From an uncultured Candidatus Saccharibacteria bacterium (GTDB lineage Bacteria > Patescibacteriota > Minisyncoccia > 2-02-FULL-40-12 > GWA2-44-9), in NCBI GenBank assembly GCA_964366725.1, contig CAYIUL010000001.1, positions 1 through 51,984 on the forward strand: 51,984 bases of DNA. The letters run 5' to 3'. A model generated the notes under the pieces. The model was not told the DNA's origin and ran no database searches. It saw only the letters and a list, made by a program, of their open reading frames with translations. The translations under genes were made by a program, and so were the position numbers. Below, in pieces: positions 5,475 through 47,980 of the stretch (within the stretch, counting starts at the first letter, position 1; each line of letters begins with the position of its first letter).

Positions 5475-5529
5475 TTAGAAACAGTTCTTAAACAAGGTAG
5501 CTATGCCTGAAATAGCAAGGAGACATGTG

Positions 5530-6078
5530 ATGGACAAGAAGTTGCGTATTCTGCTCGTCGTCGGGGTCTTCGTGATGGGCTTCGTGTGGGGAACCGCGTT
5601 CGAGAGACGCTACACCGTTCGACCCCTCCAGGCGAAAGTCGAGGGATACAAGTCCGAGATGGAGATCGTCAAGGCGGTGGAGCTGGCTCGCACGAACCAG
5701 CCGGGCGCCACATTCGACTACGGCGAGTACCGCGGTCTTCCCGTCCAGCTCGTCGTCGATCCTGACGGTCGCATCATCCTCCAGATCATCTACAGCGGGG
5801 GAAATCCCGACGTGGATGCCGACATTCGTGGCGACTATCTCGACTTCCTCAAGAATCAAATCGAGATGGCCGTCGCTACAGAGAAAGGGATTCGGCTCCG
5901 CAACGGGATGTTGCTGCGTATTGAGGGCTACCCGATTTGGGGGCCTCACGGAAGCTTGGGGCCACAGGGTGGCGCCAAAAGGTTGTACTTCGGCGAGAAG
6001 GCAACTTTCGACGGCCATACCATCATCGTGCACGGAGAAGCCACAAAGCCCATCGGCTACTATCCCTACGCCCTTTAG
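5530..6078 (+). CDS. hypothetical membrane-anchored protein (GC-rich)
   Basis: ORF-track frame 5503-6078. The AAGGAGA Shine-Dalgarno at 5517-5523 favours GTG 5527 or ATG 5530 as the start. N-terminal hydrophobic helix LRILLVVGVFVMGFVWG. A terminator lies directly downstream. Confidence 0.6.
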   Translation: MDKKLRILLVVGVFVMGFVWGTAFERRYTVRPLQAKVEGYKSEMEIVKAVELARTNQPGATFDYGEYRGLPVQLVVDPDGRIILQIIYSGGNPDVDADIRGDYLDFLKNQIEMAVATEKGIRLRNGMLLRIEGYPIWGPHGSLGPQGGAKRLYFGEKATFDGHTIIVHGEATKPIGYYPYAL

Positions 6079-6085
6079 CCAGTCC

Positions 6086-6146
6086 GCCGTCACACCGAAG
6101 AAGCCGCCCACATCGGGCTCGCTCCTCGGTGTGACGGCTTTTTTAT
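6086..6146 (+). terminator. intrinsic terminator
   Basis: CCGTCACACCGA ... TCGGTGTGACGG: a 12-bp stem with a large loop, followed by CTTTTTTAT. Confidence 0.7.
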
Positions 6147-6149
6147 AAG

Positions 6150-6182
6150 AATATTCCAACATTCTTGAGAATGTGAGGATGT
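6150..6182. repeat. degenerate copy of the 34-nt palindrome
   Basis: ATATTCCAACATTCTTGAGAATGTGAGGATGT. The left arm and centre are conserved; the right arm has diverged (GTGAGGAT versus GTTGGAAT). Confidence 0.7.
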
Positions 6183-6248: not shown

Positions 6249-6461
6249 ATGGCAGGACCATACGATCTATCCGGCGGAGGCGGGCTGAAGGCCCTGGCTC
6301 TCTTGGAGAGAGCCCACACCAAGCGGATGTCGGCCCGGCATCTGCGGGCCACAGCCGGAATGTATAGTGACGAAGAGGACTGGGTGCGCGACGCCCGCTC
6401 CACCGCCAAGAAGCTCGAAAAAGAAGCCGAACACCTCGAACGCATGGCGAGGGAAGAATAA
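6249..6461 (+). CDS. hypothetical protein, 70 aa (GC-rich)
   Basis: AAGGAGA lies 5 nt upstream of the ATG. The protein is charged and helical-looking with no recognisable domain. Confidence 0.55.
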   Translation: MAGPYDLSGGGGLKALALLERAHTKRMSARHLRATAGMYSDEEDWVRDARSTAKKLEKEAEHLERMAREE

Positions 6462-13603: not shown

Positions 13604-15436
13604 TTATATCATCGTCACTTGGTGATCCACCAAACGTCGGTAGGACGGGCACGTCCGATAGAGATCGGGGTGCGTCCCTTCACCAACGACTCGCCCTTCG
13701 TCCATCACGATGATGCGGTTGGCGTACCGAATGGTCGAGAAGCGATGAGCGATGATGATGGTCGTCCGGCCCCGTGACGCTTCGTTGATGGCGTCGCGGA
13801 TCTCCGCCTCGACTGCGGCATCCAGTGAACTGGTCGCTTCGTCGAAGATTAGAATAGCCGGATCCTTGATGAGCGCCCGGGCTATGCCGACGCGCTGGCG
13901 TTCTCCGCCGGACAGCTTTATCCCGCGCTCGCCGATCAGGGTATCGAACCCCTTTTCAAGCTTGTGCGAGAACCGGCTGATCTGGGCGATCTTTGCAATC
14001 CGTTCCAACTCCTCTTCGGTCACGTCTTTGGCTTTCCCGTTGAGACCGTAGAGAATGTTGTAGCGGATGCTCTGATCGAACAGAGGCACAACCTGCTCCA
14101 CCACGCCCACCTTGGAACGGTAGTCGTGAAGGTCGACAACCCTGAGATCTTGGCCGTCGATAAGGACTTGCCCCGATATCGGATCACTGGCACGCACCAG
14201 TAAGCTGGCAAGTGTGGTTTTTCCGGAACCGGATTCGCCGACAATGGCCACCGTCTCACCTGGCGCTACCTTGAATGATACGTCCTGAAGCGCTGGCTTG
14301 CTAGATTTCTCAGGTTTGTGACCATCTGCCTCATCTTCGTCCGGCGAGATCGGCATACGGTTGTTGTAGGCGAAGGAAAGATTCCTCACCTCGATGTGAC
14401 CCCGAACGGGGTTGAGCACAACCGGGTTCGGAACAACTTTCACGTCCGATTCCATAGTCAGGAATTCGCAGTACCTTTTGATAGAGGTCCACATCCTGAT
14501 GATCTGGCGCTGTAAGTGTCCAATGTTCCACAGGCCGTCCAGCGCGTTTCCAGACCAAGCCCAGAAGACCACAATGGTGCCGACGGTGTAGCGTTTGTTG
14601 TAGACGTAGTAAGCGCCGACAGCCATTATCACTACCCTCGCCAGAATAACAATCATGGAGCGAAGGTAGGCGAGAATAAGAAATCGTCGCCACACAGGTC
14701 TTGCAAACGTGACCGTCTCGGCGTATTTCGCATCAGCTTCTTCTCGCGCCTTTTTTTCTTGCGCGTTTACCAGCACGTGGCCGATGTGTTGGATGATCTC
14801 GTTCCTGAATCTCGACTCCTGATTCCACATCTTCTCGAGCTTCTTCAGGTCGTCCTTGAAGGTGTAGTTCATCCAGAGAGTCAGCGAAATGAACAGCGCC
14901 ATAGCAACCAGAACGATTGAACCCATCGCCAAACTCAACCAGCACATTGCGAACGCCATGATAATCGCTCGTGAAGCGGTGGGCACAATCTCGTAGACCA
15001 GCATATTCACCAGTGAGGTGAGCGAGTGCTGGCCTCGATTGATAATGCTCTGCTTCAGGCCCGAATTGAGCGTGTTGTGCTGACCGACCGAGAGCGCCGT
15101 CATCCTGAACATCGTCTGGTCGCTCGCAGCTTCGTCGATATCAAAATCGACCTTATTCACTTCGTAGTTTTCACGCCCAAACGAGAGCATGTGGCCCAAA
15201 AGCATGACGCCTCCGGCCAATGCAATGAGCCAGTAGGTCTGACTCATGATTTCCTTAGGATACTCGTTTTTGAGTATTGCCGGCCCAAGGTTATCAATGA
15301 TGACACCCTGAATGTAGGGACTCACCAGTGACAGCGCCTGTCCCAGTGCGATGAGCACTAAAACAAGCGCCATACGCCATTTCAGGGGGCCGAAAATAGC
15401 CCACGCCTGCTCGAAAAACGCTTTTCGAAATGACAT
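13604..15436 (-). CDS. ABC exporter, fused permease + ATPase (MsbA-like type I)
   Basis: 610 aa. Six-helix TMD, Walker A GESGSGKTT, signature LSGGERQR, Walker B ILIFDEATS. GC-rich relative to its neighbours. Confidence 0.9.
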   Translation of the reverse strand: MSFRKAFFEQAWAIFGPLKWRMALVLVLIALGQALSLVSPYIQGVIIDNLGPAILKNEYPKEIMSQTYWLIALAGGVMLLGHMLSFGRENYEVNKVDFDIDEAASDQTMFRMTALSVGQHNTLNSGLKQSIINRGQHSLTSLVNMLVYEIVPTASRAIIMAFAMCWLSLAMGSIVLVAMALFISLTLWMNYTFKDDLKKLEKMWNQESRFRNEIIQHIGHVLVNAQEKKAREEADAKYAETVTFARPVWRRFLILAYLRSMIVILARVVIMAVGAYYVYNKRYTVGTIVVFWAWSGNALDGLWNIGHLQRQIIRMWTSIKRYCEFLTMESDVKVVPNPVVLNPVRGHIEVRNLSFAYNNRMPISPDEDEADGHKPEKSSKPALQDVSFKVAPGETVAIVGESGSGKTTLASLLVRASDPISGQVLIDGQDLRVVDLHDYRSKVGVVEQVVPLFDQSIRYNILYGLNGKAKDVTEEELERIAKIAQISRFSHKLEKGFDTLIGERGIKLSGGERQRVGIARALIKDPAILIFDEATSSLDAAVEAEIRDAINEASRGRTTIIIAHRFSTIRYANRIIVMDEGRVVGEGTHPDLYRTCPSYRRLVDHQVTMI

Positions 15437-15575: not shown

Positions 15576-16442
15576 GTGAATATCAGTGTTGTTACCATCA
15601 ACTACAACAGTTCGGAGAACACGATAAAACTTTTGGAGTCCCTCAAAAACCAGACCGACAAAAATTTTAATGTTTTGGTCATTGATAATAACTCCGGTCC
15701 GGACCAGAAAGCAATATTAAAGAACTACCGGACAGAAGAAACTAATATCGTATTTATCGAAAACGAACATAACCTGGGTTTTTCCGGAGGCAACAATGTC
15801 GGGATCAAGAAAGCCCTTGCAGATGGCGCTGACTGGATTCTCCTGCTCAATAACGATACTTGGGTAGAAAGTGACTTTATCCATCGTCTAAAGACAAATT
15901 TAGAAGGCAAGGAGGGGATAATGGGGTTGGCCATAGACGAAGGGGGCAGAACCGTTTACGCCGGTAAAATTGAATGGCTAAAACCCACACTTATCCACAT
16001 AACGACACGGGGTGTCGTTAGTCCACAGGCATATGCTATCGGGGGGGCGATGGCGGTGCATAAGAACGTATTTGAAAAAATAGGGTTCTTGGACGAGAGA
16101 TATTTTCTTTATTTTGAGGATGCCGATTACAGCATAAGGGCCCAAAAGGCGAGCATTCCCGTGGAGTTTTTGCCTGAAGTTCAGGTCCGCCATTCTGTCT
16201 CGGCGTCAACCAAAAAACTCGGCTCGCCTCTCATTCTGCGCTACCACTACCGCAATGCTTTGTATTTCAATTTGAAACACGGGCCATGGTATATCAAACT
16301 GCTTGTCTTGCCCTGGAGCTGGTTTGTGGCTGTAAAACAGATACTTAAGCTGACAGCGGGAAGAAACGCCAAAGAGTCAGAAGCAATATTGGCCGGGGTC
16401 GTAGATTTTTATAAAAACAATTACGGAAAACTTCATGTATAA
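15576..16442 (+). CDS. GT2-family glycosyltransferase
   Basis: 288 aa, GTG start. Motifs: VVTINYNS, VIDNNS, LLNNDT, YFEDADYS. Confidence 0.85.
   Translation: MNISVVTINYNSSENTIKLLESLKNQTDKNFNVLVIDNNSGPDQKAILKNYRTEETNIVFIENEHNLGFSGGNNVGIKKALADGADWILLLNNDTWVESDFIHRLKTNLEGKEGIMGLAIDEGGRTVYAGKIEWLKPTLIHITTRGVVSPQAYAIGGAMAVHKNVFEKIGFLDERYFLYFEDADYSIRAQKASIPVEFLPEVQVRHSVSASTKKLGSPLILRYHYRNALYFNLKHGPWYIKLLVLPWSWFVAVKQILKLTAGRNAKESEAILAGVVDFYKNNYGKLHV
16000..16020. repeat. in-CDS palindrome, TAACGAC family, copy B
   Basis: TAACGACAC-ggg-GTGTCGTTA, translated ITTRGVVS inside the GT2 gene. Confidence 0.85.
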
Positions 16443-17574
16443 GATAGGCATAGAATGCGAGGAGCTGGAAAAAGGCGGTGGATGGGGAATTGGCCGCATT
16501 GTTTCAAAACTTCTTGAGGAAATTTCCCACCATCCAGAATTAGGAAAAGAGTTCCGGTTTATTTTATTTTTCAAAAACCGCATTCCTGCTCTGTCATACC
16601 TAAACGCGCCGATATTTAAAAAAAGAGTTGTGGCCCCGTTTTTCAAAGGCCGTTTATTTCCGGTTTATTATCTTTTTCTCTTGCCTCTACGTCTCTGGTT
16701 CGAACAGCCGGATCTCATGTTTTGGCCGGCCTATATGCTGCCGTTTTTTACCTTTACACGATCGCTTTCTCTTATGACCGAGGATGTTTATCATGAAGCA
16801 TTTAACGGCAAGCTCCCATTCAAATACAGATTTTTTTATATGATTTTCGGAACATACTCGGCAAAACATGCAACCAAGCTTATGGCAATATCAGAGACAT
16901 CGAAGAAAAATATGGCAAAACTTTATAAAATCGACCCGGATCGAATATTTGTAAACCATTTGGGAGTGGATTTAAAATACGATCGTATTGTAAATCAAAC
17001 CGGAAATTTACCGTATATTTTGTACATAGGTCAGGCATTCCCAAGGAGACATTTGAAAGAAACGATTTTAGCGTTTGAAAAACTCGTCACAGAACATTCC
17101 AACATTCTTGAGAATGTTGGAATGTCAGAATTAAAGTTGATTGCTATAGGGCCGGACAAGTATCCCGAGCTAATTATTGATTCGCTGGCATCAAAAGTAA
17201 ACGGGCGGCTAGGTCGAGAAGCAGTGATTCATAAAAATTACGTTGAAGATAGCGAGCTTGCCAAACTATACGCCGGAGCAAAAGCTTTGGTATATGTATC
17301 CGACAGAGAAGCATTTGGTCTGCCTCCAATGGAAGCACTCTCGTTTGGAGTTCCGCCTGTTATCGCCGATAATGAATTAGGCCGCGAACTTTTCGGGGAA
17401 TACGCATTTTACGTTAAAAATCCTGACCCGGACGGAATTGCCAACGGTATCAGCCAGGCATTAACCGATTCCAATAAAATTCAGAAAATAAAGAATTCCG
17501 GACCGGAATTCGTGAAGAAATATAATTGGAAAAATTTCACCGATAAATTCTTAGAAAATGTTAAAGACATCTAA
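16435..17574 (+). CDS. GT4-family glycosyltransferase
   Basis: 379 aa. Motifs: YILYIGQAFPRRH, SDREAFGLPPMEALSFGVP. Confidence 0.85.
   Translation: MYKIGIECEELEKGGGWGIGRIVSKLLEEISHHPELGKEFRFILFFKNRIPALSYLNAPIFKKRVVAPFFKGRLFPVYYLFLLPLRLWFEQPDLMFWPAYMLPFFTFTRSLSLMTEDVYHEAFNGKLPFKYRFFYMIFGTYSAKHATKLMAISETSKKNMAKLYKIDPDRIFVNHLGVDLKYDRIVNQTGNLPYILYIGQAFPRRHLKETILAFEKLVTEHSNILENVGMSELKLIAIGPDKYPELIIDSLASKVNGRLGREAVIHKNYVEDSELAKLYAGAKALVYVSDREAFGLPPMEALSFGVPPVIADNELGRELFGEYAFYVKNPDPDGIANGISQALTDSNKIQKIKNSGPEFVKKYNWKNFTDKFLENVKDI
17093..17126. repeat. 34-nt palindrome, copy 3, in frame inside the GT4 gene
   Basis: AACATTCCAACATTCT-TG-AGAATGTTGGAATGTc matches copy 1 at 33 of 34 positions. It encodes EHSNILENVGMS in the interdomain loop. 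Confidence 0.9.
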
Positions 17575-19078
17575 ACTAAATTTAGTTTTTATCGTCGAGC
17601 TTTTTTTGTTTGCCCTGATAATTACCGGGGTCATACCCAGGGAGACGGCGCTTTATCTTGCCGCGGGATTGGCGGCGTATGTTCTCCTGGCATCCTTAGA
17701 AGATGCATCTGTTTTATTTATAAGATCCATACCCTTATTTCTGGCCCTCCCTCTCACAACTAATTTTGACAACTTCAACACTTGGCGGATTATTTCGAGT
17801 ATTATTTTTTTGAAGTGGTGGCTCTCGTCCAGGTGGCTGCCCGACTTTCGCTTCAATAAATATACAACGCCTCTTTATCTGCTCTTGGCTCTGGCTTTGC
17901 TCTCCATAATTCCGGCGGCGGACAAGATACTTGCCGTCAAACGCATTATTTATTTCGCAAATCTTTCTCTTGTCGGAATTGTGCTCTTTGATCTGGCCCG
18001 TAAAAACGACGTGGCAAAGAGATTTATAAAAAATTTATCGGTGCCGGTAATAATAGTGACTATAGTTGGACTTATACAGCTTGCATCAACTTACTTCATC
18101 GACATCTACCAGTTCATGCGCATCTGGGGAGAGGGGATACAATGCCGCCAGTTCGGGAACGAATGGTGCGGTATCGCCGTAGAACTCGGGAATACCTGGT
18201 TCGCGTATTACGGGGAGCAGTTGTCTTTGAGGGTTTTCTCGCTTTTCCCGGATTCGCATTCTTTTCCGCAGTTCGTTCTGCTCGGACTGCCGGCTATATT
18301 CGCTTTGGCGCTTTCGAAATTCGGCATCAACGACTTCGAGAACCTTAAAAAGATGTATCGCACAAGAACGCGGCTCATTATAATCCTCGTGCCGATGGTT
18401 TTCCTGGTGGCCATATTGAGCGGCACGAGGGGCATCTGGGCGGCAAGTATAGGCGTTCTTCTTTTCATGTTCATAATTTTCAGGAAGTTCCAGAAGACAG
18501 TTGCGGGGCAGGAATACAGGAACCTGTTCAAATACATATCAACGTATATGGTCATATTTTTCATGCTCTTTTCCGTGGCTTACCCGATATTCGTTTCTCC
18601 CCAGTTCCTTTTATCAAAAGGTAACTTCGGACTTTTCGGCAGCAGAATAAGGTCCATCATCGACTTCGGCGAGACGTCCAACAGCCAGAGGATAGCCATC
18701 TGGAAGGACACGGTCGAGTCAATAAAAGACAGACCGTTCCTGGGTGTGGGTATAGGAAATTTCCCCGTAGTCCTCGGCCAAGACCTGTTCCTGGCCCGGG
18801 CCGGGTCTTCGGCGCACAATTTGTATCTCCAAATAGCGGCAGAAATGGGCGTCGCGGCTTTGGTTGCCGCGGTCTGGTTTTTAATAGTTCTTCTGAACAA
18901 AACCTTCCACAATTTTGTGAGAGAAAAAAACCAGGTCGTGGCCGTATATAACGGCGCATCGCTCCTGACCATTCCCTGGGTGCTGATGTATTCATTCACC
19001 GACGTGGCTCTTTTTGACGAAAGAGCTTTTCTTCTTCTGGTCGTAACAATAGCCCTGATTTTATCTAAACATGAGTGA
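17558..19078 (+). CDS. O-antigen ligase / polymerase-like (Wzy_C) membrane protein
   Basis: 506 aa, polytopic. SAHNLYLQIAAEMGV motif. Confidence 0.8.
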   Translation: MLKTSKLNLVFIVELFLFALIITGVIPRETALYLAAGLAAYVLLASLEDASVLFIRSIPLFLALPLTTNFDNFNTWRIISSIIFLKWWLSSRWLPDFRFNKYTTPLYLLLALALLSIIPAADKILAVKRIIYFANLSLVGIVLFDLARKNDVAKRFIKNLSVPVIIVTIVGLIQLASTYFIDIYQFMRIWGEGIQCRQFGNEWCGIAVELGNTWFAYYGEQLSLRVFSLFPDSHSFPQFVLLGLPAIFALALSKFGINDFENLKKMYRTRTRLIIILVPMVFLVAILSGTRGIWAASIGVLLFMFIIFRKFQKTVAGQEYRNLFKYISTYMVIFFMLFSVAYPIFVSPQFLLSKGNFGLFGSRIRSIIDFGETSNSQRIAIWKDTVESIKDRPFLGVGIGNFPVVLGQDLFLARAGSSAHNLYLQIAAEMGVAALVAAVWFLIVLLNKTFHNFVREKNQVVAVYNGASLLTIPWVLMYSFTDVALFDERAFLLLVVTIALILSKHE

Positions 19079-32613: not shown

Positions 32614-34593
32614 ATGTTTGTCATTGAAGTCATTCCCTTAACCATTCTGCCCCCGAACGTTCCTCAAATCTTGAGCTACTTTTTTGATAAAAAACTCGAG
32701 CGTGGAGCGGTAGTCGTGGTAATTATCGGGAGCCGGAGCGTCAAGGCGATAGTGATCGATTCAATTCCCCTGACGGAACATAAGCTCGGTTTAAAAAAAG
32801 CGGAGTTCCAACTCAAGAAGCTTTCCGAAGTCCTGATGGAGACGCCGCAGATATCCGATCGGCAGCTCCGCATCGCTCTCTGGCTTTCCAAGACCTACTA
32901 TTCGCCTTTGGGCATATGTCTTAAAACCGTCCTGCCTCCGTTCTTTTTGAAGAAAAAATTCCCAATATTGCCGGAGGTGAGTATAAAAACAGAGGAAGAA
33001 GTGAAAAGAAAACCGGATCTCATTTTGACCGACGCCAAAAATGCGTTGAAGAATGTCCTGCCCCTGGTCAAGAGCGCGGTAAGCAAGAACGGACAGGCGG
33101 TTTTGATCGTTCCCGATAACCAAACTCTCGATTATTTTTGCGACAATTTAAAAGAGTTTGATACAACAAAGATATCTTCGGAAATGGGAAATAAGAAGTT
33201 TTTTGAGGCCTGGCAGAATATCCAGAGCGGGAAGACCAAAATATTGGTAGGCACAAGACAGGCGCTTCTTTTTCCCTTCAAGAAACTGACGCTGGTAATT
33301 GTCGACGACCCTCTGCACGAGTTCTATAAATCCGACATGTCTCCAAAATACAATACGGCCGATCTCGCCGGTTATGTAGCCAAAATAAACAACTGCCGCC
33401 TTTTATACCTGTCCCCCATCACAGGGGTCGAAAATTATTTCCTCTTGAAAAACAAAACATACGAATTGATAGACAAGACCTCGGCCTCGCCGCCCATTAA
33501 GATCGTCAACATGGTCAATGAGATAAAATCGGGAAATTTCTCTCTGTTAAGCAGGGAGTTAAAAAGTCAGATACTTTCCTTGGTTAATCCAACGAGTCAA
33601 AATAAAAAAATCCTCATTTTCTCACCGCGCCGGGGACATTCGGGCGTTCTTGTCTGCCAGAATTGCGGCTGGACAGCGAAGTGCCCGAATTGCGAAACGG
33701 CATACAGAATACATCGGGCCGAAGATCTGGTCCTAATGTGCCATCACTGCGGAAACACGCAGCGGCTCCCGGATCACTGCCCTAACTGCAACAGCTCCAA
33801 ACTAAAGCCGACGGGCCCGGCCGGAAGCCAGAAAATATATGAGGAGGTCAGAAGGGTTCTATCCCAGAATGAAATAAGCGGTCGCGGAGTGGGATTCCCT
33901 GTCGCCCGGCCGGAGGCCGTCGGCGACAAAGGGAACTCTGTCGTGCCTGTGCTGGTCCTGGATACGGACGTAACGACAAACCAAACCGAGGAAGAAGAAG
34001 TAATGTCCGAGATAGCCCTGCCAAAAACGTCCGTTCTCATTGCCACCCAGATGATATTTAGCTACCGCTACGACCACATCTTCGATTTCGTAGCCATTAT
34101 GAATACAGATTCCCTTATTCAATCTCCCGATTTCCGCACGGAGGAACGGCTGTTCTATCAGCTGGAAAAACTACTCGATTTCAAGCCGCAACAACTGCTT
34201 ATCCAGACCTTCAACCCCGAGAACCAAGCTATCTTGATGGCCTCACAAAGAAATTACAAGGACTTTTACGAAAAAGAACTGGCTGTACGGCAGGCCCTCT
34301 CGTATCCCCCATTCTCCAGATTGATAAAATTAACCTTCCGGCATCCCGACCGCGAAGTGGCTTCGCGCGAAGCAAGAATACTGGCCGGCAAACTAAAAAT
34401 GGCTGTAGTTCAATTAAAGTTATCGGATAAAATAAAAATAACCGACTCCTCTCCCGGATACACCGAAAAAGAACGCGGACTTTATACATACAACATAGTA
34501 ATCAAATCCCTCAACGGCCAAACCCCGAGAGAAATATTGAAATTCGTCCCCTCAAGGTGGCTGATAGATGTCGACCCTCGTTCCCTTCTATAG
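32614..34593 (+). CDS. priA: primosomal protein N' (PriA)-like, ATPase motifs degenerate
   Basis: 659 aa from ATG 32614. Cys-rich Zn region CQNCGWTAKCPNCETAY ... CHHCGN ... CPNC, plus VLIATQM. No GxGKT Walker A. DEEH is replaced by DDPLHE. No GRAGR. Confidence 0.8.
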   Translation: MFVIEVIPLTILPPNVPQILSYFFDKKLERGAVVVVIIGSRSVKAIVIDSIPLTEHKLGLKKAEFQLKKLSEVLMETPQISDRQLRIALWLSKTYYSPLGICLKTVLPPFFLKKKFPILPEVSIKTEEEVKRKPDLILTDAKNALKNVLPLVKSAVSKNGQAVLIVPDNQTLDYFCDNLKEFDTTKISSEMGNKKFFEAWQNIQSGKTKILVGTRQALLFPFKKLTLVIVDDPLHEFYKSDMSPKYNTADLAGYVAKINNCRLLYLSPITGVENYFLLKNKTYELIDKTSASPPIKIVNMVNEIKSGNFSLLSRELKSQILSLVNPTSQNKKILIFSPRRGHSGVLVCQNCGWTAKCPNCETAYRIHRAEDLVLMCHHCGNTQRLPDHCPNCNSSKLKPTGPAGSQKIYEEVRRVLSQNEISGRGVGFPVARPEAVGDKGNSVVPVLVLDTDVTTNQTEEEEVMSEIALPKTSVLIATQMIFSYRYDHIFDFVAIMNTDSLIQSPDFRTEERLFYQLEKLLDFKPQQLLIQTFNPENQAILMASQRNYKDFYEKELAVRQALSYPPFSRLIKLTFRHPDREVASREARILAGKLKMAVVQLKLSDKIKITDSSPGYTEKERGLYTYNIVIKSLNGQTPREILKFVPSRWLIDVDPRSLL

Positions 34594-34630
34594 AGTGTAC
34601 AAATGTACAAAGGGCGCCTTTGTACACTCT
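34592..34630. repeat. REP-like hairpin, left flank of the Y1 transposase
   Basis: AGAGTGTACAAATGTACAAAGG-gcg-CCTTTGTACACTCT. Core is GTACAAAGG-gcg-CCTTTGTAC at 34605-34625. Confidence 0.8.
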
Positions 34631-34641
34631 GCTCCCCTTTT

Positions 34642-35280
34642 TCAAAAGTCACCCTTATCTAGTAATAAATCCTCCATATCTTTTTTTGATTTTATAATTT
34701 CGTAAGACGATTCGGTGAATTCTTTAAAATCTTGAATATTCTTAAATTGATTGCCAATCAAAGCTGTGTCGCAAAGATCACTTTGACTGTTTAGGTAGGC
34801 AGGATAGCTGCTCCAGATATATTCGGCCGAATTTTTTATAAGACCTGCTACTTTAGGGTTTAAATGTATATAAGCTGCAAGCCAAGTTAGATAATCATTA
34901 TCATCCACTATTATTTGCCTGAACCGATCTTGAAAAACATGGCCCACATGCTTATATTTTTTATTGGAATATTTAGAGTAGCTTGTGCAGAGTTTTAGAA
35001 TTAATTTGCTCGGCGGTATTTCATTGTTTTGTTTTATAAGCAAATGAAAATGATTCGGCATCAAACAATATGCCAAAAGAGTAAATGAGCCCGACGGAAG
35101 AGGTTGGATTCTATAATATCTGTTTTTCTCATATGTTTCGGGAAATAAATTTTGCCTTAATCGCAATAGGAAAAATTGATAGTCCTCTCTATTGATAAAG
35201 ATGTTGTTTTTGAAATTGCCCCTATTATAAATATGGTAAATCTCGCCAACTCCTGTTTGTTTATAATCTCGCGTATTCAT
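34642..35280 (-). CDS. IS200-like / REP-associated tyrosine (Y1, HUH) transposase
   Basis: 212 aa. YHIYNRGN, LAYCLMPNHFHLLIKQ (HUH), GHVFQDRF, YIHLNPKVAGL (catalytic Tyr region). Confidence 0.8.
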   Translation of the reverse strand: MNTRDYKQTGVGEIYHIYNRGNFKNNIFINREDYQFFLLRLRQNLFPETYEKNRYYRIQPLPSGSFTLLAYCLMPNHFHLLIKQNNEIPPSKLILKLCTSYSKYSNKKYKHVGHVFQDRFRQIIVDDNDYLTWLAAYIHLNPKVAGLIKNSAEYIWSSYPAYLNSQSDLCDTALIGNQFKNIQDFKEFTESSYEIIKSKKDMEDLLLDKGDF

Positions 35281-44660: not shown

Positions 44661-44786
44661 TAAATTCAAAGGTCAGAATTCATATAATACTTTCTATATT
44701 TTCCGCTTACTTATGATATTTCATAGTATCATAAGTTAAACAACTAAAACCTCTGCTTTTACATCGCGCTCTTCCACTTCAAGCAG

Positions 44787-47934: not shown

Positions 47935-47962
47935 AGTATATTCCCCATTAGCACTCTGTCAA
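47935..47962 (-). promoter_or_regulatory. hrcA promoter overlapped by CIRCE
   Basis: On the minus strand: TTGACA (inside the CIRCE centre), 16 nt, TATACT. Confidence 0.65.
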
Positions 47963-47980
47963 GAGAGTGCTAATGGGGAA
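47941..47980. promoter_or_regulatory. CIRCE operator (HrcA binding site)
   Basis: TTCCCCATTAGCACTCT-gtcaag-AGAGTGCTAATGGGGAA. It contains TTAGCACTC-N8-GAGTGCTAA; the consensus spacer is N9. Confidence 0.85.

Follow-up and report, generated by a model that had tools for sequence, protein, structure and literature searches.

A palindrome within the reading frame of a GT4 glycosyltransferase

The window analyzed here is the whole stretch of 51,984 nucleotides at positions 1–51,984 of contig CAYIUL010000001.1, which belongs to the genome under study (GCA_964366725.1, referred to as G000; 522 kb in 55 contigs, 86% complete), and coordinates given without a contig label are those of the window. At 16435–17574 on the plus strand lies a single long open reading frame, without an internal stop, that encodes a GT4 glycosyltransferase (GT-B fold) of 379 residues. 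The gene is accompanied in the same operon by an upstream GT2 glycosyltransferase gene (15576–16442, plus strand) that overlaps its start and by a downstream gene for a Wzy_C/O-antigen-ligase-like membrane protein (17558–19078, plus strand) that overlaps its stop. The product matches Pfam Glycos_transf_1 at 1e-20, as well as Glyco_transf_4, and an AlphaFold model built from 120 homologs (pLDDT 91.9, pTM 0.88) has its best Foldseek matches in MshA, BshA, GlgM, WaaG, and PimA at a probability of 1.0, in agreement with the initial annotation, which had called the host a GT4 enzyme. That annotation had also allowed for a pseudogene; the host gene is intact, aligning over its full length with 120 homologs and retaining the invariant residues of the family.

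Within this gene, at 17094–17125 (no strand assigned), is a perfect palindrome of 32 nt composed of four boxes, ACATTC-CA-ACATTC-TTGA-GAATGT-TG-GAATGT. Written as ACATTCCAACATTCT-TG-AGAATGTTGGAATGT, it has 15-nt arms about a 2-nt center, and a parse into a 14-bp stem with a 4-nt loop is equally valid. The palindrome had been described as 34 nt long, from 17093 to 17126; that span falls one position short of full symmetry (33 of 34), as its outermost A/C is unpaired, and the perfect span is the shorter one given here. The description of the element as in frame, and of the peptide that it encodes, was correct: codons 17095–17127 on the plus strand read HSNILENVGMS (His221–Ser231), flanked by Glu220 and Glu232. 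Together with Glu232, these residues replace an ancestral FP[D/E], a net gain of nine amino acids. In the structural model, a helix (207–220) is followed by the insert (221–231), which forms a short helix (222–227) and a turn with a pLDDT of 92, and then by a strand (234–238), which places the insert where it had been proposed to lie, after the first helix of the C-terminal Rossmann domain. From the parallel beta-alpha-beta topology, this connection would be expected to face away from the inter-domain cleft.

The identical 32-mer recurs at 2443–2474 (no strand assigned), in the spacer between rplM and rpsI, where it ends 8 nt 5′ of the rpsI ATG at 2483 and corroborates the intergenic copy previously placed at 2442–2475. 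The stretch common to the two sites amounts to 35 nt with an 'AGA' on the left, and none of 100 dinucleotide shuffles produced any match to the 32-mer. A promoter reading of the rplM-rpsI copy was rejected, G000 having no convincing −10 element at the right spacing. A third, decayed copy occupies 6151–6182 (ATATTCCAACATTCTTGAGAATGTGAGGATGT; intergenic, no strand assigned), 3′ of a terminator-like hairpin; its left arm is of the G000 type and its right arm, GAATGT-GA-GGATGT, is similar to one of the sister types. The G000 assembly holds no copy beyond these three. Single arms were found nowhere else in the genome, on which ground a parent insertion sequence with palindrome ends was rejected, and the contig ends carry no half palindromes.

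Other inverted repeats were observed in the course of this work. The hairpin immediately 5′ of the decayed copy is GC-rich (6092–6146; gtcacaccgaaga...tcggtgtgac, followed by a T-run), and the open reading frames around it, 5503–6078 and 6249–6461, have no Pfam match. A CIRCE-like inverted repeat at 47945–47976, TTAGCACTC-N8-GAGTGCTAA, resembles the HrcA heat-shock operator with a spacer of 8 nt versus the usual 9. A further palindrome, TTACTTATGATATTTCATAGTATCATAAGTTA, occurs twice with almost no difference between the copies, once at 44707–44738 and once on contig C5 of G000 (13660–13691), and may be a candidate site for another regulator.

The loop in GT4 orthologs

The loop reads E-FP[D/E]-LKL in 18 of 19 orthologs from related species, versus E-HSNILENVGMSE-LKL in G000. 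The closest database homologs of the enzyme reach 56–68% identity at most, and among the best 120 of them, the short loop is found in 71, a related insert at the same junction in 44, and some other insert in 5. A palindrome-derived insert is likewise present at 28 of the 77 GT4 loci that are readable in metagenomes. The initial annotation had set the insert, counted as 12 residues, against orthologs; alignment does reveal extra residues, but they are not private to this strain, as approximately 40% of the orthologs have such an insert. The derivation of FP[D/E] from the palindrome by one deletion was rejected: no contiguous in-frame deletion yields this sequence, and FP[D/E] is therefore taken as the ancestral state.

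The insert junctions are identical in all insert-bearing loci (acagaACATTC...GAATGTcagaatta). At nine GT4 loci, the palindrome is perfect (15/15) and of differing sister types, with CA/TG, TC/GA, TA/TA, or CG/CG as box spacers and TTGA, TCAA, or TGCA as the center. The types seen at the loop are ACATTC-CA-ACATTC-TTGA-..., ...-TC-ACATTC-TTGA-..., ...-TA-ATATTC-TGCA-..., ...-CG-ACATTC-TCAA-..., and ATATTC-TC-AAATTC-TCAA-.... Since these perfect sister types occupy one and the same loop, the two arms have changed together while the peptide changed. At other GT4 loci, the palindrome has decayed to 8–12 pairs, as in the QQNEHPYKLENVGMS form. Two loci, L200 and L223, carry a palindrome identical to that of G000 in enzymes that, outside the insert, share amino-acid identities of 0.62 and 0.56, respectively, with the G000 protein. 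At residues that are identical in these comparisons, the third codon position matches in 10 of 10 cases inside the insert and at a rate of 0.48 outside it.

The insert is scattered on the GT4 tree. When the tree is built without the loop, the presence of the insert implies approximately 25 changes, at least 11–13 of which are forced by well-supported branches, and the QQN...HPYKLE insert subtype alone implies at least seven, in trees that were built by a quick method. The loop segment therefore departs from the history of the gene, and a single old insertion does not explain the distribution; as far as the sequences can tell, the insert must have been gained repeatedly, lost, or exchanged as a segment. 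Empty alleles already have the CAGAA repeat found on the flanks of the GT4 copy, so no consistent target duplication is seen. The same GT4 family also contains a second in-frame palindrome site (L181:4079–4110 and L187:3974–4005), in the loop after FYVP.., where a different phase gives NIPTF[LC]RMLEC. Locus L181 has palindromes at both GT4 sites.

A four-box palindrome family across Patescibacteria

The G000 palindrome belongs to a family that we define by the pattern ACATTC-NN-ACATTC-TNNA-GAATGT-NN-GAATGT, 32 nt long with arms in a 15-2-15 arrangement, and it matches the core of this family exactly. With one genome taken per species, the 22-nt core is present in more than 111 stretches among the matches listed, nearly all of them in Patescibacteria and spread over many classes, and conservation extends to the outer ends (ACATT/AATGT). 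Of 400 genomes sampled evenly across the phylum, 23 contained the four-box pattern, at 1–8 copies each. Our literature searches found no relevant published description of this palindrome family.

We read 84 instances of the palindrome, 17 of which lie inside long open reading frames. All but two of these 17 intragenic copies are in phase 2, giving xHSNIL[E/K]NVGMx, a bias of ≈6e-5 by a binomial estimate in which the expected share of that phase is ≈0.4. Eight of the host proteins were confirmed by Pfam, namely TsaD, TrmD, MnmA, another GT4, ArgS, a class-II aldolase, MurC, and UvrC, the remaining hosts being named by eye only. Because 15 of the 17 intragenic copies are read in the same phase, the peptide is not irrelevant, and the earlier claim that the DNA rather than the peptide is the conserved unit, which is supported, needs this correction.

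This phase bias, the confident modeling of the insert as a short helix, and its wide distribution among orthologs would all be expected if the peptide were the selected unit, a functional enzyme loop whose palindromy at the DNA level is incidental. Such a reading is largely refuted and retains very little probability. The same 32-mer is intergenic in the window and occurs in more than 100 other stretches; elsewhere, the element is read in other phases, as DIPTYLRMLVC in the metK gene of a congener (G002, below) and as NIPTFLRMLEC at the second GT4 site. In the GT4 loop itself, synonymous sites are frozen, sister palindromes supply different peptides, and 59% of the orthologs have no insert. 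The identical peptide, wherever it occurs, is encoded by a palindrome with 14–15 of 15 pairs, so the case against a DNA unit that the initial annotation had envisaged, the same peptide in orthologs without any palindrome, did not materialize. Judged by these comparisons, it is the DNA that defines the element, and selection filters the readings that proteins can carry.

Several properties of the family bear on how the DNA might act. Box spacers are non-complementary in approximately one-third of the copies listed from the 400-genome sample, with no G-U compensation, which suggests that it is the boxes that are kept and not base pairing. Perfectly palindromic centers (TTAA, TCGA, and TGCA) are common. 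Palindromy continues into locus-specific flanks far beyond chance expectation, 31 of 69 copies gaining three or more additional pairs versus 3 of 84 shifted controls; the flanks of intergenic copies are inverted, not direct, and many of these copies lie between an A-run and a T-run.

One way to read such features is as a nucleic-acid hairpin, either an RNA stem-loop with a role in termination, processing, or stability or a DNA cruciform, that would modulate the GT2-GT4-Wzy transcript. The RNA form of the GT4 copy folds as a 14-bp hairpin (−20.4 kcal/mol, z −4.4), the arms co-vary, locus-specific stem extensions are common, and the A-runs and T-runs around intergenic copies recall bidirectional terminators. 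The GT4 copy, however, does not have the makings of an intrinsic terminator, as its stem is AT-rich, its outermost bases are unpaired, and it is followed by CAGAATTAAAG with no T-run. The spacers that do not pair argue further against a hairpin, and the palindromic centers fit a symmetric protein site better than they fit an RNA loop. No Rfam family reaches the gathering score anywhere in the 52-kb window, and a known RNA family was rejected on this basis. We regard a hairpin function as quite improbable.

An ArsR-like regulator gene bracketed by the palindrome

In other genomes, the palindrome is associated with a small regulator gene. At four loci (L077, L089, L096, and L119), two copies lie 320–380 nt apart and enclose a gene for a protein of 91–99 residues with matches to MarR/ArsR helix-turn-helix families. 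The C terminus of this regulator, Thr-Phe-Gln-His-Ser-stop, is encoded by ACA TTC CAA CAT TCT TGA, so that the last codons and the arm of the palindrome are one and the same sequence. At L089, the TCAAGA center is followed after 17 nt by TAAGAT, all of it 5′ of the regulator ATG. One copy would cover the promoter of the regulator, and the other covers its last codons.

The association extends to the sample of 400 genomes, in which the regulator was counted at E ≤ 1e-15. Of these genomes, 23 had the palindrome and 16 the regulator, with 12 having both. Every genome with two or more copies has the regulator (12 of 12), and the 11 genomes with the palindrome only have one copy each; the related genomes in this sample are not independent of one another, though they span many families. 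No GT4 orthologs were found, at E ≤ 1e-60, in five regulator-bearing genomes. The regulator probably binds the palindrome.

Autorepressors of the ArsR/SmtB family, such as SmtB, CzrA, and CadC, act at 12-2-12 inverted-repeat operators. The palindrome loci share with these systems a small winged-helix protein (Pfam HTH_5/MarR) and a long inverted repeat with a 2-nt center, which in the other genomes is placed over the promoter region of the protein itself, and four boxes would fit two dimers of an ArsR-type protein. Unlike in the ArsR/SmtB systems, a second copy overlaps the stop codon of the regulator and encodes its C terminus, and additional copies are scattered over the ends of genes and within coding regions. 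The copy studied here is located inside the GT4 gene of a genome in which no cognate regulator was found.

Site turnover in a genus with no detected regulator

A cognate regulator of the TFQHS type was not found in G000, searched by profile and by tblastn at E ≤ 5, or in three other species of its genus (G001–G003), an absence that is unproven given that these metagenome-assembled genomes are incomplete (80–96% complete). As neither G000 nor its three congeners yielded a regulator, the GT4 copy of G000 may be an orphan without present function. Copies persist in the genus nonetheless, three in G000 and four in G002, and two are still perfect though no regulator has been detected.

The sites at which these copies lie are not constant. 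Whereas G000 has its copies in the rplM-rpsI spacer, in the GT4 gene, and at 6151, those of G002 are in the rplM-rpsI spacer and in metK, which share one identical variant, as well as upstream of dus and at one further intergenic site. The metK loop of G001 is filled at the same position as that of G002 with a different perfect sister palindrome in a third phase: the G001 copy (L035) is ACATTCTCATATTCTCAAGAATATGAGAATGT, read as TFSYSQEYENV, the G002 copy (L012) is ACATACCAACATACTTGAGAATGTTGGTATGT, and G005 has none. The rplM-rpsI spacer, which holds the variant copy in G002, is only 1 nt long in G015, and G000 has no copy at the site upstream of dus that is occupied in G002. The rplM-rpsI, metK, and GT4 sites are each filled in some congeners only.

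Two of these intergenic regions have further content of their own. The rplM-rpsI spacer of G001 (L163) is approximately 90 nt long and has its own inverted repeats (atcagtta..ttttcca / tggaaaa..taactgat), unlike those of G000 and G002. The region between an alaX-like gene and dus in G000 (contig C28, 1973–2524) has approximately 900 extra bases where G002 has the palindrome alone, and these bases include an open reading frame of 184 residues that begins as a winged helix and has, at its C terminus, a Cas2/PaaX-like motif, WRMVFFDIPE....

The G000 assembly does contain a distant ArsR-like gene, encoding 86 residues at 999–1259 on the minus strand of the short contig C55 (L157). A palindrome of its own, CTATTCGCTTATTCGCGCGAATAAGCGAATAG, brackets this gene and has the same architecture, CTATTC-GC-TTATTC-GCGC-GAATAA-GC-GAATAG. 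The copies on this contig (978–2052) lie upstream of the gene at 1286, over its stop codon at 978, and beside small toxin-antitoxin-like open reading frames at 2021. The metK of C55 has 51% identity to that of G002, versus 88% for the metK of G001, and C55 may accordingly be mis-binned. This second regulator was likewise not found in the congeners.

Comparison with palindromic repeat elements

Rickettsia palindromic elements (RPEs) are inserted in frame into housekeeping genes (PMC10969869). They measure approximately 100–150 bp, occur in tens of copies within one genus, and have no known partner protein. The four-box palindrome resembles them in being both intergenic and in frame within unrelated housekeeping genes, where proteins tolerate the added peptide on their surface, and in forming a family that is defined by the DNA and not by the host protein. 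In-frame copies of the kind that characterize RPEs and in-frame MITEs are present in the GT4 gene, in metK (G001 and G002), and in the genes for TsaD, TrmD, MnmA, ArgS, FBA, MurC, and UvrC. The size, copy number, and terminal inverted repeats with target-site duplication of RPEs and MITEs are not reproduced, the palindrome being 32 nt long with three copies in G000 and with CAGAA present in empty alleles. It is also unlike RPEs in having 1–8 copies per genome, in being near-invariant across a phylum, and in bracketing a regulator gene.

REP/BIME elements with RAYT (Y1) transposases share with the palindrome a length of approximately 20–40 nt, a frequent location at gene ends, and the capacity to form a hairpin. 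The palindrome has no GTAG-type 5′ tetranucleotide, its copies are few (at most eight) instead of hundreds, and its conservation extends far beyond the species level. G000 has four RAYT-like Y1 open reading frames (IS200-type, HUH; 215–287 residues) in its 0.5-Mb genome, one in the window at 34450–35100 on the minus strand and the others on contigs C5, C6, and C32. A Y1/RAYT transposase as the mobilizer was rejected, since none of these four genes adjoins a palindrome and no flanking repeat is common to them; a Y1 gene flanked by repeats, a high copy number, and a 5′ tetranucleotide, which mark REP/RAYT systems, are all lacking here.

These comparisons bear on a reading in which the palindrome is a selfish miniature repeat, akin to RPEs or to REP/REPIN elements, that invades hairpins, gene ends, and tolerant protein loops with no part in regulation, the ArsR-like gene being a mere frequent neighbor or a domesticated partner. 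Much of what we observe is compatible with this view: sites turn over within the genus (dus, rplM-rpsI, metK, and GT4), one variant recurs unchanged at two unrelated sites in G002, in-frame copies are found in no fewer than 12 housekeeping genes that are unrelated to one another, copies persist in a genus without a detected regulator, the flanks extend the palindrome, and short direct repeats (CAGAA and CAAAAT) lie beside GT4 copies. Against it stand the very low copy number per genome, the lack of a consistent target duplication, the lack in G000 of a parent element with these ends, and Y1 genes that adjoin no copy. The core, moreover, is near-invariant across the classes of the phylum, unlike the species-specific REP and RPE families, and in the sample the genomes with multiple copies always had the regulator. 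We consider a purely selfish repeat possible but doubtful.

A putative regulator-binding site carried in a protein loop

We favor, with a probability of roughly 0.6 for the joint claim, an interpretation in which the palindrome is the site of a putative ArsR-like regulator, the GT4 copy is a tolerated in-frame passenger, and the symmetry of the DNA is kept. The 32-mer is one copy of a Patescibacteria-wide element of two ACATTC and two GAATGT boxes that, elsewhere, most likely serves as the binding site of the small winged-helix regulator. Copies would come to lie at the ends of genes and, in rare cases, in protein loops that tolerate them. In the GT4 enzyme, the copy occupies a surface loop, probably on the side away from the catalytic cleft, where twelve residues stand in for three ancestral ones, and the additional peptide would be a harmless by-product in the phase best tolerated by proteins (HSNIL[E/K]NVGM). 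The symmetry of the DNA could be kept by selection for binding or by copy-correction between arms or between copies. The intragenic copy may act as a roadblock or as a second operator for the GT2-GT4-Wzy operon. To the wider family, the window adds an insertion site common to approximately 40% of an ortholog group, with sister palindromes whose arms covary, together with frozen synonymous sites and a genus that has copies and no detectable cognate regulator.

Some observations weigh against this interpretation. The palindromy that extends into the flanks is something that a protein site does not need, perfect copies persist in a genus where no cognate regulator was detected, and the insert and its subtypes are scattered on the GT4 tree. 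Template switching from arm to arm is a known route by which quasi-palindromes are corrected, and it could keep and extend the symmetry of these elements without selection.

A stronger version of the regulatory interpretation, which we judge unlikely, treats the ArsR-like protein and a spreading operator as a self-propagating module and the GT4 loop as a long-lived intragenic operator of an envelope glycosylation operon. The operator would be copied to new loci, including protein loops, and would track the specificity of the regulator by selection or gene conversion, and ultra-compact genomes would in this manner put regulatory sites within coding sequence.

In practical terms, the 12-residue HSNIL[E/K]NVGM stretch should be treated in annotations, alignments, and trees of Patescibacteria as a recurrent, DNA-driven feature and not as a protein motif, and the 32-mer flags places in which to seek the partner regulator. 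If the element is selfish, it would be among the smallest repeats known to colonize proteins, and it would do so phylum-wide. Should the site prove functional, uncultured ultra-small bacteria would place regulator-binding sites within the reading frames of essential enzymes, with symmetry held over long evolutionary times in an unusual overlap of the regulatory and protein codes.
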